NCBI GenBank assembly: GCA_963785725.1
Contig: CAWAWS010000015.1
Coordinates: forward strand, 1 to 64,000
DNA length: 64,000 nucleotides
Direction: 5' to 3'
Source of the DNA: an uncultured delta proteobacterium
Lineage (GTDB): Bacteria > Myxococcota_A > Polyangia > Palsa-1104
Positions 35,640 through 42,190 of the stretch are shown one piece after another (position 1 is the stretch's first letter; each line of letters begins with the position of its first letter). Under the pieces are notes generated by a model. It saw nothing but the letters and a program-made list of their open reading frames with translations, made no database searches and was not told where the DNA came from. A program made the position numbers and the translations under genes.

Positions 35640-36815
35640 ATGACGTTGGCCGGCGTCGTCGTGCGCAATGCGCTGGCGGCGCGCGCGCGCGTGGCCTTGA
35701 CGATCGTCGGCGTCGCCATCGCCGCCGCCACGTTCGGCTTCTTGCGCACCGCCATCGACGCCTACTACGCCGGCGTCGACGCGGCGGCGCGCGATCGCTT
35801 GGTCGTGCGCCATGCGTCGTCGATGCGCCTGCGCTTGCCGATGGCCTACGGCGCGCGCGTCGCCGCCGTGCCGGGGGTTGCGCGCGTCGCCGCCGTCGAC
35901 TTCTTCGGCGGCATCTACAAAGAGCCCAAATATTACTTCGCCAACCTCGCCGTCGAGGACGCGTTTCTCGACATCTATCGCGAATATGAAGTGGCGCCGG
36001 CCGAGCGCGCGGCCTACCTCGCCGATCCGTCGGGCTGCGTCGCGGGCGAGAAGCTGGCGCGCATGTTCGGCTGGCACGTCGGCGATCGCATCATCCTCAA
36101 AGGCACCTATTTCGCCGGCGATTGGCCGCTGACCATCCGCGCCATCTACCATCCGCGCGATGCGGCGACGATGGCGACGCAGCTGTTCTTCCACCATCGC
36201 TATCTCGACGACAACTTGCCCGACGACGAGCGCCATCGAGCGGGCGCGTTCGTCGTCACCGTCGCCGATGACGCCAGTGGCGCCGATGGTGATCGCTCGC
36301 CGGCGGTCGCGCAGGCCGTCGACGACGCGCTCGCCGGCAGCGACGCGCCGACCTTGACCGAGAGCGAGCGCAGCTTCCAGCTCCTGTTCATCGGCATGGC
36401 CGGCCAGGTCTTGACCGTCTTGCGCGTCGTCGCCGGCTTCATGCTCGTGCTGCTCGGCCTGGCGCTGGCGAACGCGATGGCCACCGCCGTCCGCGAGCGC
36501 ACCGGCGAGCTCGCCGTCATGAAGGCGCTCGGCTTCCGCGGTCGCCGCTTGGCCGCGATGATCGCCGCCGAAGGCGCGCTCATCGGCTGGGCGGGCGGCC
36601 TCGTCGGTCTCGGCCTGTGCGCCGCGTGGGTGCGCGCCTTCGCGTCCTTCATGGACCACAACCTGGGCGCGTTCTTCCCCATCTTCGCGCTGCGCGGCGC
36701 GACGATGGCCGCGATCGTCGGCGGCGCCGTCGTCATCGGCGCGCTGGCGGCCGGCTGGCCCGCCTGGCGCGCCGCCCGCATCGCCGTCGCCGATGCGCTG
36801 AGGCGCGTCGGATGA
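35640..36815 (+). CDS. ABC transporter permease (MacB/FtsX family)
   Basis: TM1, periplasmic domain, AVRERTGELAVMKALGF and PAWRAARI. Confidence 0.88.
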   Translation: MTLAGVVVRNALAARARVALTIVGVAIAAATFGFLRTAIDAYYAGVDAAARDRLVVRHASSMRLRLPMAYGARVAAVPGVARVAAVDFFGGIYKEPKYYFANLAVEDAFLDIYREYEVAPAERAAYLADPSGCVAGEKLARMFGWHVGDRIILKGTYFAGDWPLTIRAIYHPRDAATMATQLFFHHRYLDDNLPDDERHRAGAFVVTVADDASGADGDRSPAVAQAVDDALAGSDAPTLTESERSFQLLFIGMAGQVLTVLRVVAGFMLVLLGLALANAMATAVRERTGELAVMKALGFRGRRLAAMIAAEGALIGWAGGLVGLGLCAAWVRAFASFMDHNLGAFFPIFALRGATMAAIVGGAVVIGALAAGWPAWRAARIAVADALRRVG

Positions 36816-37949
36816 GGCTGTTCGCCTACCACGCGCGCAGCTTGTGGCAACGCCGCGCGACGACCGCGGCCACCGTCGCCGGCGTCGCGCTCGTGTCGTT
36901 CGTGCTGGCGACGGTTCTCATGCTCGCCGCCGGCATCGAGCGCACGCTCGGCAGCTCGGGCGAGCCCGACAACGTCGTCGCCTTGCGCCGCGGCGCCGTC
37001 GCCGAAATGCAGAGCCTCATCGCGCGCGACGCCATGGCCGCCTTGACCGTCGACGCCGCCGTCACCCGCGACGCGCGCGGCCCGATCGTCAGCGCCGAAT
37101 CGGTCGTGCTCGTCGTGCTCGGGCGCTCGAGCATCACCGTGCGCGGCGTCGGCGCGCGCGCCTTCGACGTGCACCGCCGCGCCCACGTCGTCGCCGGCCG
37201 CGCAATCGCGCCCGGGCGCGCCGAGATCCTCCTCGGCGCGACGCTGGCCGGCCGCTTCGACGGCGCCCACCTCGGCGGCCGCGTGCGCTTGGGTAAACAG
37301 CTGTTTACGATCGTCGGCATCCTCGGTGCCGGCGGCGCGTCCTTCGAATCCGAAGTGTGGGGCGCGGCCGACGAGCTCATGCCCGCCTTTTCGCGCACCG
37401 CCTATTCGTCGCTCGTCGCCCGCGTCGCGCCCGCCGATGCAGGCTTCTTTTGCCGCGCGCGCCGCCGCCGATGTGCGCACCGCCGTCGATGTCAGCGACG
37501 AAGTCGAGTACTACGCGCAGCAATCGCGCGGCCTCGCCACCTACGTGCGCATCCTCGGCCTCTTCTTGGCGATGGTGTTCGCCTGCGGCGCGCTCGCCGG
37601 CGCCATGATGACGCTGTGGGGCCAAGTCGCCGCGCGCCGTCGCGAGATCGGCGTCCTACGCGCGCTCGGCTTTCGTCGCCGCGCGATCTTGGCCGGCTTC
37701 GTCGCCGAAGGGCTCATGCTCGCGCTCGCCGGCGGCGCCATCGGCCTCGGCTGCGCGTCGCTCATGCAGCTGGCCAGCTTCAGCGTCTTCAACTTGGGCA
37801 CGCTGTCGGCGATGGTCTTTCACTTCCGCCTCGGCCTCGTCATCGCCACGACGACGCTCGCTTTCGCCGCCGCCATCGGCAGCGTGGGCGCGCTGTGGCC
37901 GGCCACGAACGCCGCGCGCCGCTCCATCGTCGAATCCTTGCGCGGCTAA
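36812..37949 (+). CDS. ABC transporter permease (MacB/FtsX family; frameshift ~37450)
   Basis: ATGA overlap. FESEVW and VAARRREIGVLRALGF. Confidence 0.82.
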
Positions 37950-37971
37950 ATGCGGTGCCGCGCGCGCAGCT

Positions 37972-39529
37972 TCAGGGGCAGCCGGTCTGCTGCTTCTTGT
38001 CCCAGCCTGGCGGCACGTTGAACGAGACCGAGCCCTTGCTCCAGCGGTCGAAGTTGGAGTCGGGCGTCGCGAAGACCCCGTCGTGACCCAGCTGGCCGCC
38101 GATCAGATGGTTGATCGGCTGCGCCGTCGAATGGCCCGGCGTCGTGTCGTTGTAGTCGCGGAAGTAGTTCTGCATCGTGTTGGCGACGGTCTGGCGGTCG
38201 CCGCTGCTGTCGCGCCCGGGATCGGTCGCGTTGAGCGTCTTGCCCATGCTGTTGAGCACGTTCTGAACGTCGCCGTCGTGATTGTTCATGCTCGTCTGAA
38301 TCGCGTCCGGCGTCGGATTGGGCGTGTCCTTGATGCCGGGATCGTTCTTCATCGCGTTGCCGAGATCCTGCAGCCGCTTCGAGGTCTCCGAATACGAGTT
38401 GGCGTGCTGCTGATCCTGCAAGTGATACGGGTTTTGCATCTCGATCGGGTGCGGCACCGACGTCGGATCGTTGGGCGGATTGGCGGCCGCGAAGCCCGGC
38501 GTCACGCCGTAAACACCCGAGCCGATGCCGTGGCTGGTGATGTCGATCTTGCCGCCCGGCCGCGAATATTCCGAGCCGCGCCCGTTCAGTCCCGGCGGCG
38601 CGTAGTGCGTGATGGTCGCCTTGCCCGTCGAGATCGGCTTGGTCTCGCCCGCATCGCCAGCCTTGTGTGGCTTCTGATTGGGATAGACGGTCGAAGGATA
38701 GGGACCGCCGTAAGGTGCGTCGCCGAACTCCTTGGTGACGGTGACCGAGATCTTGTTGCCGTCGACGCTGTTGACGGTGCCTTCGTAGACCTCGCCGTCT
38801 TCGTCGGTCCACTCGATTCTGGTCGCCCTTGACGAACGCGTTGTGTACCCACGCGCCGAGCGTGCCGACGAAGTAGGAGTGCGTGCCCTCGACCTCGAAG
38901 TTGTAGACCTCGGCGCGGGCCTCCACCGCTTGCACGGCGCCGACGCGCAGCTCGTCACCGTCGGCGTCGAGCAGCGGCTCGTCGGGCGCGAGCGCGTCGG
39001 CGCGCGTCCAGGCGCGATCGGCGGTCCAATAGAGGTGACCCGGCGTCGAGCGAACGACGTCGGCGCTGCCGTCGCTGCGCACGACGCTGACGGCGACGAG
39101 CGGCATGTCCGGCGTCACGAACAGCGCCGTCACCGGCGCGAGCGCCACGCGGCCCGTCTGCTCGTTACGCGAGAGCACGCGGTCGCCGCGCCGCACCTGC
39201 TCGATGGGCTCGGGACCGGATTCGGTCCACACCAGCGTGCCGGCGACGAAGCAGTGCTGGCCCGGAATCATGCACGAGCCGCCGGGGCAGCTGTCGCCGC
39301 TCGGCGTCCCATCGTTGGACGCCACTTGCGTGTCGGCGCACTCGGCGGGCGGGTCGCTGCCGTCGAGCTTGGCGCTGGCGACGGCCATCTTGCACTTCAC
39401 CTTCGTGCCGAACGCCTTGAAGCCGATGATGCAGGAGATGCCGACGAGCACGAGCGCCGTGATGTACTCGACGGCCGCGCTGCCGGAGCGGTGCGACCTG
39501 CGAACGGACCCGTGCCAGACGACAGTCAT
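37972..39529 (-). CDS. Flp pilin - Hint - putative toxin fusion (one extra A at ~38818)
   Basis: G|SAAVEY plus hydrophobic helix. Hint runs from CFVAGT to VHN. Removing one A joins KGDQ to IEWTDEDG and gives an open frame to the stop at 37972. Confidence 0.8.
38840..39253 (-). other. Pretoxin-type Hint (bacterial intein-like) domain, 138 aa
   Basis: C1 CFVAGTLV, block B STPGH, VYNFEVEGTHSYFVG, terminal HN, +1 residue Ala. Confidence 0.9.
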
Positions 39530-39544
39530 GTCGGACCCTGCCTG

Positions 39545-39561
39545 AGCAAGCGACATGCCGT
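39545..39561 (-). promoter_or_regulatory. Sigma54 promoter ACGGCATGTCGCTTGCT
   Basis: GG-N10-GC with TTGC. IHF-like TTTCAAGCAATTA at 39574-39586 and inverted repeat TGAGGC-N5-GCCTCA at 39599-39615 further upstream. Confidence 0.65.
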
Positions 39562-39639
39562 CTTCGTGAGCTGTAATTGCTTGAAAGAATGAGCGGTATG
39601 AGGCGGCTGGCCTCACCGGCGGCGGGCGTTTCCCCAGTC

Positions 39640-40880
39640 TCAGCCGCCGTACTGCGCCAAGATCTTGGTGAAGTCGTAGGGCTGCTGGTCGACGCTGCTG
39701 CAGGCGCCGTCGGCCCAATTGTGCGGCACGCTCGGATCGCAGGCCCGATCGCGGTTGAGCGCCCAGTTCGCCAGCCAGCCGAGGTGCTTCGACTGCGCGT
39801 AGGCGAGCAGGCCCTTGAACGTATCGGTCGTGAACAGCTCGCTCGGCTGATCGGTGTGGCCGTTCATGAGCTGGAGGCCCGTGTGCGCGTAAGCCTGCGC
39901 GTCGGTCCAAGCGGGAAAGAGCGCTTTGAGCTGCGCGTGGACGTCTTCGGCGACGGCGATGTCGGCGTCGGTCATCGTCGCTGCCGGGCCGCCGTAATCG
40001 AAGTCCATGATGTTGAAGATGTCGATGCGCGCGCCGGCGGCGATGGCGAGGCTGATCTGCGCCCTGCCCGTGTCGGGGAAGCCGACGGTGGTCATCGGGA
40101 ATCGTCAAGCGAGACGTTGAGCGTGCGGCCGGCGGCGGTGGCGGCGTCCTCCAGGAGCTTGACGGCCTGGAAGCGCTTGGTCTCGTTGGCGGTGTCGCCG
40201 AGCGCGGCGTTCTCGACGTCGAGATCGATGTGCGTCAGCTGGTACTTGTCGATGACGGCTTGGTACGCGGCGGCGAGCGCGCTGGCGCTGCCGCACGACT
40301 GGCCGAGCTCGGTGCCGTTGTAGCCGCCGAACGAGATGCCGACGTCGCCGCCGGCCGCGCGCGCCGCCGCGATGACGGCGGCGACCGTGGTGTCGACTGG
40401 AAACCGGGTTGGCCGCGAGACCGTCCCAGGCCGGCGTGCAGCTGCCGCTGTCGAGCACGAACGCCAAGAGGAAGCTCTTCTCGCCCGTCGCCGCGATGAC
40501 GTCGGGCAGGCTCTGCGGCGAGTCGTCGAGCGGCATGAAGTAGGTGGGCGACCAGAAGCCGCCGGGCGTGCTCGGCCGCCGCACCGGCGTGCGCTGCCGC
40601 CACCCGGCGCTGCCGCCGCCACCGCCGTTGGCGTTCCGCCGCCGCCGCCGTTGGCGCTGCCGCCGCCGCCGGCGTCTCCGCCGCCGCCGCCGTTGGCGCT
40701 ACCGCCGCCACCACCGTTGCCATTGGATGTTCCGCCGCCGCCGCCATCGGCGTGCCGCCGCCGGCCGAGTGGCCCATGTCGCCGCTGCCATCGCCGTTTC
40801 CGGCCGTCATCCGCCGCAACCGGCGGCGGTAAGGCAAGGGCAAGCGAACCGGCCAGCGAAACCACGAACGAAGCGCGCAT
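39640..40880 (-). CDS. Secreted GH18 chitinase (several frameshifts)
   Basis: Signal peptide, GGGGSANG linker, [14 protein letters not shown], catalytic IDLDVE (DxDxE), MDFDYG and WALNRD. Confidence 0.8.
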
Positions 40881-40978
40881 GGCGCCCGTCACCGCAAGCG
40901 CCGCGCCAGCAACAACTGCTGGAAATCGCGCGGCCGAGCTGGGGAGCGGCGCACGCAGCCGTCAACCGCATGTGGACG

Positions 40979-41181: not shown

Positions 41182-42190
41182 ATGGCCGACCGGATCGGAC
41201 TCGTCGCATTCTGGAAGAACTACGATCGCAAGCTCTACCTGCGCGCCGCGCAGCTCGCCGACGAGCTCGGCTACGACTCGTTCTGGGTGCCCGAGGCGTG
41301 GGGCTACGAGATCTCCACGCTGCTCACCGAGATGGCGCTGACGACCAAGCGCATCAAGCTCGGCACCGGCATCTTCAACGTCTACAGCCGCTCGCCCGGC
41401 CTCATCGCCATGACCGCGGCGACGATCGACGAGATCAGCGAACGGCCGCTTCATCCTCGGCATCGGCACCGAGCGGCAAGAACGTCATCGAAGGCTTCCA
41501 CGGCCGCAAGTTCGACAAGCCGCTGACGACGGTGCGCGACGTCATCCGCGTCGTGCGCACGCTGCTCGCCGGCGGCAAATTGTCGGACGCGCACGCGGAG
41601 ACGGCGGAGTATCGCCCGTTCGCGCTGGAGATGAAGCCGCTGCGCAAGTCGATCCCGATCTACGTCGCGGCGCTCAAGCCGAAGGCGATCGAGTCGATCG
41701 GCGAGCTGCGCCGACGGCTGGATTCCGACGTTCTGGCCCTACGACAAGTTGCACGAAGGCCGTGCGCTGCTACGAGGCCGGCGCCAAGAAGGCCGGCCGC
41801 GACGCGAGCCAAATCTCGACCGCGCCGTTCACGACGGTCTTGCCGCTCGGCCTGGAAGCGGGCGGCATGATGGCCAAGCGCATCATCTCGTTCTACATCG
41901 GCGGCATGGGCGACTATTACACCGAGCTGCTCTCGAACTTCGGCTTCGCCGACGACTGCAAGCGCATCGTCGAGCTCTACGCGTCGAAGGAGACGCGCGG
42001 CCAGGCCGCGGCCGCCGTGTCCGACCGCATGATCGAGGCGCTCACCATCGCCGGCGACCCGGCGCATTGCGTGGCCGAGCTCAAGCGCCGCCGCAGCTTC
42101 GGCATCGACTTGCCGATCTTGAACTTGCCCACCGATATGCCGTGGGAGATGGTGGAGCTGTTCATTCGCGGCATGGCGCCGACCGCGTAA
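41182..42190 (+). CDS. LLM-class (luciferase-like) flavin/F420-dependent oxidoreductase (~4 indels)
   Basis: [34 protein letters not shown] and IPIYVAAL. Confidence 0.85.

Follow-up and report, generated by a model that had tools for sequence, protein, structure and literature searches.

Whether Tad/Kil pili deliver toxins, and which toxins these would be, is described as open in the available text of the Kil papers (PMC8460266, PMC12075869). The question is raised within a single gene by the window, a 64,000-nucleotide stretch of DNA that forms the start of contig C15 in an 8.9-Mb assembly of 47 contigs. An earlier note had read a minus-strand gene in this stretch as a Flp pilin fused to a self-cleaving Hint domain and a putative toxin, and had proposed it as a pilus-delivered polymorphic toxin. 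Here we ask how far that reading is borne out by the gene itself, by its relatives and by the pilus genes of its host.

Architecture of the pilin-Hint gene and its frame break

Read on the minus strand, the gene encodes a basic leader followed by the motif G|SAAVEY and a hydrophobic helix; a linker with four Cys then leads into a pretoxin Hint domain of 138 aa, and a tail of 288 aa completes the protein. The start proposed earlier, at 39,615, is replaced here by the ATG at 39,529, the likely start codon, as the natural proteins P0009, P0010 and P0011 begin at the equivalent Met; in frame from this ATG, the leader, processing motif and helix read as previously described. The features of the locus are as follows.

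39546..39559, minus strand: sigma-54-like -24/-12 element (inferred), 30 to 17 bases 5' of the start codon
39482..39529, minus strand: basic prepilin leader, residues 1-16, Gly-terminated, with a type IV prepilin peptidase site predicted from sequence
39392..39481, minus strand: Flp-like pilin helix, SAAVEY (Glu+5, Tyr+6), a hydrophobic and then amphipathic segment up to Cys46
39254..39391, minus strand: Cys-containing linker with Cys64, Cys81 and Cys86
38840..39253, minus strand: pretoxin Hint domain (BIL-A-like), Cys93 to His229-Asn230, then Ala
37972..38839, minus strand: C-terminal payload (288 aa where the copy is intact), beginning with about 50 beta-rich residues and matching no family
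38817..38820, minus strand: frame break, one extra base in the window relative to natural copies that are intact; likely an error of assembly
37326..37949, plus strand: convergent neighbor, an ABC-type permease (FtsX) whose end lies 22 bases from the pilin-Hint stop codon

The N-terminus carries the Flp-type motif in full (basic leader, G|xxxxE, aromatic residue at +6, hydrophobic helix), and its helix shares 15 of 33 residues with the standalone Flp pilin of the same genome and 19 of 33 with that of a relative. The Flp_Fap check suggested in the earlier note gave a divided answer, in that the Pfam model does not match the window copy but does match paralogs and homologs; a profile built from the six pilin parts of this genome matched standalone Flp pilins of relatives with E-values down to 4e-17. 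The intact protein is a 518-aa fusion rather than a small all-helical Flp subunit, and could therefore serve only as a minor, modified pilin. Beyond the helix, the Cys-rich linker noted before is present, with Cys46, Cys64, Cys81 and Cys86 likely forming two disulfides.

The Hint domain is equally distinct. The 138-aa segment recognized by eye (CFVAGT...TPGH...VHN) corresponds to Cys93-Asn230 and matches PT-HINT with E=1.1e-20 and 74.8 bits (cut-off 27.7), and all of the Hint blocks are in place, including Cys1, the block B TxxH, the block F His and the terminal His-Asn. The nearest solved chains are a bacterial intein-like domain, 2lwy, with E=1e-13, and the Streptomyces umbrella toxin, 8w20, with E=6e-11. 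The residue that follows the domain (+1) is Ala, and the Cys, Ser or Thr found there in inteins is absent.

Downstream of the Hint domain the coding frame is broken. Third-position GC places a switch of frame near 38,845-38,810, and the remainder (37,972-38,832) is open in another frame up to the stop at 37,972. The natural protein P0009, which possibly derives from the same sample as the window, is intact at 518 aa, identical to both window pieces away from the junction, and ends in a 288-aa tail, in good agreement with the approximately 290 aa predicted once one base is removed. Further intact relatives occur at 97% and 62% identity, one of them named Polyangia bacterium, so that the lack of intact homologs, which had been set as grounds for abandoning the reading, does not apply. 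Going by the names of close homologs, the host is likely a myxobacterium of the Polyangia (Myxococcota). Additionally, a 1,865-nt contig of run X1 spans 37,965-39,721 with 44 other letters and has one base missing at 38,817; the extra base suspected at about 38818 is thus absent from this contig, and the break lies within 38,817-38,820.

Because intact natural copies exist, we regard the break as a likely assembly error. A real frameshift in the strain, which would make the window copy a pseudogene and leave the family unaffected, is very improbable. The records compared are contigs, the strain of the bridging contig is about 97.5% alike, and the public entry of the same contig carries the split form (P0012), all of which would fit a genuine mutation; P0009, however, is intact with a protein identical on both sides of the break, and the assembly has other single-base differences from contigs nearby as well as several split genes. 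Frameshifts also appear to divide several neighbors at window positions 35640-37949, 40092-40892 and 41182-42190 and the tail of the paralog on contig C7 (L005:5432-8008), a pattern typical of indel errors in the assembly.

Variable tails and immunity genes in the family

The genome contains five paralogs of the window gene (tblastn), and all six of its PT-HINT matches belong to pilin fusions whose tails differ from one another; the six proteins can be aligned over pilin, linker and Hint but not beyond. One of the five other tails resembles a papain-fold Gln amidase, with E=9e-5 and a score of 24.0 bits that falls just short of the cut-off (24.1), and the others are unmatched. Flp_Fap matches two of the paralogs weakly; with the cut-off at 32.2, the paralog on contig C4 reaches 32.9 bits when the genome is searched and 28.4 bits when the protein is. 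No immunity candidate lies downstream of any of the six genes, five of which face a convergent gene while the sixth precedes a sigma-54 regulator. One paralog is located 3-5 kb from a Tad locus and five are scattered far off. A sigma-54-like element, modeled on the -24/-12 consensus, precedes all six genes by 27-40 bases when the pattern is relaxed after inspection (41 of 1955 likely genes in the background) and five of the six under a stricter pattern (77 of 1955), although the copies of the element share ancestry; a scan for sigma-70 promoters found none.

In a tree of Hint domains, built from 42 fusions and 20 other proteins after six intended loci were dropped for want of a parsed Hint, the fusions cluster without forming one clade, and deep support is weak. 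The Hint of the window copy falls outside the supported clade that holds those of the other five paralogs, although the pilin joined to it belongs to the local type; module shuffling between pilin and Hint may be inferred from this.

Two paralogs have chitinase genes immediately upstream: on contig C20 a pair of GH19 genes (L003:8384-11135) and, in the window, a frameshifted, putatively GH18-like ORF at 39640-40892 (minus strand) that has no Pfam match. This arrangement is a weak hint of fungal targets.

To survey the wider family, we searched 1.84 billion representative proteins with a profile of the six N-terminal parts and considered the best 150 matches. Judged by range, 77 of these span both pilin and Hint; four borderline rows were left out, and five of the 77 look truncated. 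A set of 77 tails, in which the six local ones are included, falls into 52 BLAST clusters. Toxin-type Pfam domains were matched in 23 of the 75 pilin-Hint homologs scanned (E<=1e-3), with five more at E-values of up to 0.005. The 23 comprise ADP-ribosyltransferases of VIP2, Scabin, exotoxin A and HYD1 type, together with barnase-like RNases, GH-E nucleases, glutamine deamidases, M91 peptidases, DXD glycosyltransferases and a hydrolase; two of the 75 tails match non-toxin domains and the remainder have no Pfam match. Further RNase, HNH, deaminase and Scabin-like tails were found at genome loci. The proposal that homologs should differ at their C-termini was thus answered clearly, with hypervariable and often toxin-type tails joined to a conserved N-terminal trafficking module, as in polymorphic toxins.

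The N-terminal parts are constrained throughout. Neither Gly16, the predicted prepilin peptidase site, nor any catalytic position of the Hint varies among 40 family members, the G-x4-E-aromatic motif is kept in 60 of 82 proteins, and Flp_Fap matches ten of the 75 homologs, one of them over the cut-off (P0125 scores 33 bits). Among 80 proteins in which the +1 residue could be located, Cys does not occur there and Ser or Thr occurs in ten, so splicing is not the rule; the earlier expectation of cleavage without splicing, based on the Ala of the window copy, therefore extends to the family.

In addition to the proteins themselves, we took 40 genomic regions, of which 38 have a Hint ORF and 30 are pilin-type loci with downstream sequence. 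A gene of an immunity family follows nine of these 30 loci (Pfam), namely barstar in seven cases, of which two are below the cut-off at E of about 1e-4, and Imm74 and Imm6 in one case each. The 15 downstream ORFs scanned with Pfam include, besides these nine, four small co-oriented genes without a match and two unrelated genes. Barstar follows seven of the eight barnase-like payloads. Three of the barstar pairs are orthologous between two sister genomes, which leaves about six independent cases of immunity. These cognate genes, which the earlier note did not foresee, add support at the level of the family. Since relatives carry toxin-type tails and immunity genes, the family is, judged from its sequences, a polymorphic toxin system with a Flp pilin as its predicted carrier.

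Several other gene arrangements were observed at these loci. In G262, L043 / L151 encodes a TadE-type minor pilin that continues into a Hint domain and a short tail of toxin-like character; the next gene matches the CdiI_N immunity family (E=2e-30), and the TadE-type minor pilin may represent a second pilin class used as a carrier. L241 and L243-L247 are Hint-toxin genes with a membrane N-terminus that is not a pilin; four of them have a small downstream gene (Imm74 at L241 and CPCC at L244 by Pfam, two others by likeness), and two precede a TadE-like gene. The tails of L222, L234, L238, L239 and L256 resemble, by eye, what we take to be CNF1/YfiH-type deamidases; they have no Pfam match and no adjacent immunity gene.

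The payload of the window copy itself matches nothing in Pfam, NCBIfam (best E 0.08), PHROGs, the PDB by sequence, a phage collection (tblastn) or the ESM Atlas. Homolog searches returned only three clusters of payload relatives, all of them pilin-Hint fusions, and copies only 52% alike conserve clusters of His, Tyr, Asp and Gly residues. A comparison by hhalign with 16 tail groups gave at best 2.7%, for the beta-rich start. Two more specific assignments were considered and set aside: a His-clade ADP-ribosyltransferase, suggested by eye from conserved motifs beyond the beta-rich start, reached at most 1.1% in hhalign to ART-type tails and drew no support from ART-PolyVal, and an HNH-like nuclease motif, our first guess, had no match anywhere. 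No cognate immunity gene was found at the window locus, where the next gene is the permease; ending as close as it does, this convergent gene leaves no room for one downstream.

From its position, its pattern of conservation and its family, we lean toward the payload being a toxic enzyme, the likeliest reading of the tail. The lack of an immunity gene would then imply a target that is absent from the cytoplasm of the producer. That the tail is instead an adhesin, recognition or signaling domain displayed on the pilus, within a family that carries toxins only in part, seems rather unlikely to us. Some family tails do match non-toxin domains (Stv, DUF4116) and sister genomes encode long Flp-like pilins without a Hint, which, along with the missing toxin match and immunity gene at the window, would suit such a role. 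On the other hand, the tail occupies the toxin slot behind an intact PT-HINT, its residue clusters persist between divergent copies, and many members with enzyme-type tails likewise lack immunity genes. The toxin tail of the earlier note therefore stands as far as many relatives are concerned, whereas for the window copy neither a family match nor an immunity gene speaks for it.

To assess the distribution of the family, we scored the best 4-20 candidates per genome in several searches. Full pilin-Hint matches were present in at least three of 301 genomes of the class, at least nine of 251 genomes of another family (a tenth is doubtful) and at least two of 89 genomes in a third search. Across the phylum, at least one of 401 genomes had such a match, with none outside the window genome among the best four candidates per genome, and in the host's own family none of the 14 other genomes had one among the best candidates scored. 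A locus scan of GTDB listed 75 loci, at least two with pilin and Hint and the others mostly unrelated Hint proteins. Copy numbers reach ten in G754, five in G848 and four in G811. Named members include Pendulispora albinea, P. rubella and P. brunnea, which we take to be cultured, as well as Polyangia MAGs.

Tad machinery and the route of the payload

The genome has the machinery that a Tad pilus would need, as the earlier note had asked: a Tad locus at C15:211-222 kb contains genes for Flp, RcpC, an FHA-fused ATPase, a second ATPase, two platform proteins, and TadE-like and TadG-like proteins, while a secretin, a TPR protein and an A24 peptidase are encoded together at C4:103-105 kb. Genome-wide there are four secretins and two A24 peptidases. 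RcpC was found in all nine fusion-bearing genomes tested and in 35 of 61 relatives, a comparison in which kin are not independent and RcpC is common in the group. Two FHIPEP genes (C29:50385-52328 and C7:204920-206809), possibly one flagellar and one a type III export gate, are present as well.

One further gene connects the Tad locus with the fusions.

G000:C15:211152-211385 (L001:11153-11386), minus strand: 77-aa pilin at the edge of the Tad locus, with no Hint and no payload

This pilin breaks off at the point that corresponds to the beginning of the Hint, within the genome it best matches two of the fusions, and the four Cys of the linker are invariant across it and the six paralogs; it is possibly the ancestor of the module or an adapter pilin. 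The pilin parts of the fusions also resemble pilins of their hosts, a likeness that could stem from ancestry alone. In G754, G811 and G848, all 20 fusion pilins have the multicopy standalone pilins of G754 and G811 as their best match, and of the six in the window genome four best match a host-family pilin, with one tie and one best match in another family.

Other observations concern the pilin genes themselves. In G754, about 15 Flp pilin genes, nearly identical to one another, stand in tandem at C1:9.400-9.412 Mb, and G811 has about ten near-identical copies at C1:3.66 Mb and elsewhere; the fusion pilins of these two genomes resemble the multicopy pilins and not the other Flp type of the same genomes. 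Beside the Tad locus of the window genome, a Flp-like pilin with a low-complexity tail of about 1,100 aa (G000:C15:225205-228753, minus strand) has the same sigma-54-like element upstream.

We consider it probable that the window gene encodes a polymorphic toxin composed of Flp pilin, Hint and payload, likely matured in the manner of a pilin and likely incorporated into a Tad pilus, with predicted self-release by the Hint domain. In this scheme the protein would be exported by Sec, the pilin helix would reside in the inner membrane and the linker disulfides would form in the periplasm, after which the prepilin peptidase would remove the leader at Gly16. The fusion would be one of the minor subunits of the Tad pilus and would probably occupy the tip or a place close to it, since the shaft could hardly accommodate a head of about 50 kDa. 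The Hint domain would then cut at Asn230 and/or Cys93 without splicing, and the payload would be shed at the contacted cell. As nuclease, NADase and deaminase payloads are paired with immunity genes, these would likely act on bacteria, including kin, while copies without immunity genes, such as the window copy, would more likely act on targets that the producer lacks, for example eukaryotic microbes, or outside its cytoplasm.

These proteins could also be real polymorphic toxins that never enter a pilus. The pilin part would then do no more than supply a class III signal and anchor the protein in the membrane, the payload would be freed by the Hint in the periplasm, and exit would occur by another route, such as type II secretion, vesicles or outer-membrane exchange. 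We regard this as unlikely, albeit not negligible. The fusion genes are scattered outside Tad operons, the genome's four secretins and two A24 peptidases could serve other export routes, and a folded head of such size would have to pass the secretin. Moreover, Hint-toxin-immunity genes with a plain membrane N-terminus occur in the same genomes and the same Hint clade (L241, L243, L244), which would agree with simple anchoring. In pilins, Glu+5 and the aromatic residue at +6 serve filament assembly and not anchoring. Their retention in 60 of the 82 proteins hence argues for a pilin that is assembled, as do the way in which the pilin part follows the Flp type of its host and the presence of the four-Cys sister pilin inside the Tad locus, and we favor incorporation into the pilus.

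Relation to known systems and implications

Polymorphic toxins with a pretoxin HINT are already known, and what is new here is the Flp pilin as the trafficking module of such a system. In common with the toxins surveyed by Zhang et al. (2012; PMC3482391), the family has a trafficking N-terminus, a HINT ahead of a variable toxin, and barstar, Imm6 and Imm74 immunity proteins. That survey ties HINT to T2SS, T5SS, T7SS and TcdB/TcaC routes, and its main text, in the version available, does not mention "pilin", "pilus", "Flp" or "TadE", although the additional file might list such architectures. In the available text of a paper on ARC toxin domains, "Flp pilins" are named in one phrase among the elements fused to these domains and a Pendulispora albinea protein appears in a figure (PMC12605009); an ARC-like tail with Imm74 occurs in our family as well (L224). 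The same text calls such elements extracellular or cell-wall anchors, and mentions neither Tad, nor a Hint domain, nor the family, nor any test of the P. albinea protein (PMC12605009). Apart from this passing mention, literature searches, which covered few subscription papers, returned no paper describing the pilin-Hint family.

Among solved structures, the BIL domain 2lwy resembles the Hint described here in its full-length match (E=1e-13), its His-Asn end and its non-nucleophile +1 residue, but the Hint here sits between a pilin and a toxin slot. The carrier of the Streptomyces umbrella toxin UmbC is an ALF-repeat particle with lectin spokes and not a pilin. Similarly to the pilin-Hint proteins, UmbC combines a HINT with a variable toxin at the tip of a stalk, according to the available portion of the report (PMC11062931, PDB 8w20).

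A further parallel is the Kil system of Myxococcus xanthus, whose pili carry variable minor pilins that are proposed, in the available text, to deliver unknown toxins (PMC8460266, PMC12075869). Like the Kil genes as described there (PMC8460266), the Tad locus of the window genome includes an FHA-fused ATPase and FHA proteins, and the secretin lies beside the prepilin peptidase in a separate cluster. There are also differences: the text accessible to us describes Kil with one ATPase, while the locus here has two of the T2SSE family, and in Kil the Tips are trimers of TadE/F/G type, without a Hint, whose effectors are proposed to be proteins in their own right, in contrast to the covalent fusion of the payload to a Flp-type pilin. 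Hint or intein is not mentioned in the available portion of the Kil pilin paper (PMC12075869). A link between the pilin-Hint fusions and the Kil system is suggested by analogy.

The candidate pilus-delivered polymorphic toxin of the earlier note is supported for the family, by the Tad genes, the variable toxin-type tails and the immunity pairs, and less so for the window copy, the tail of which has neither a toxin match nor an immunity gene. Dozens of tails without a family match, that of the window included, are candidate new toxin domains. A pilus route, if true, would join the known modes of export of polymorphic toxins. More broadly, we judge the chances to be evenly balanced that the Tad pili of Polyangia constitute a toxin secretion system in their own right, in which toxin-tipped Flp pilins, up to ten per genome, would be carried on a retractile pilus and Hint-released payloads would be delivered at or into the cells it touches, with those paired with immunity genes directed against bacteria and kin and those without against eukaryotic microbes or prey. 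With toxin, release protease and pilin in one polypeptide, and with matched immunity genes in the family, the question of toxin delivery by Tad/Kil pili becomes directly testable.
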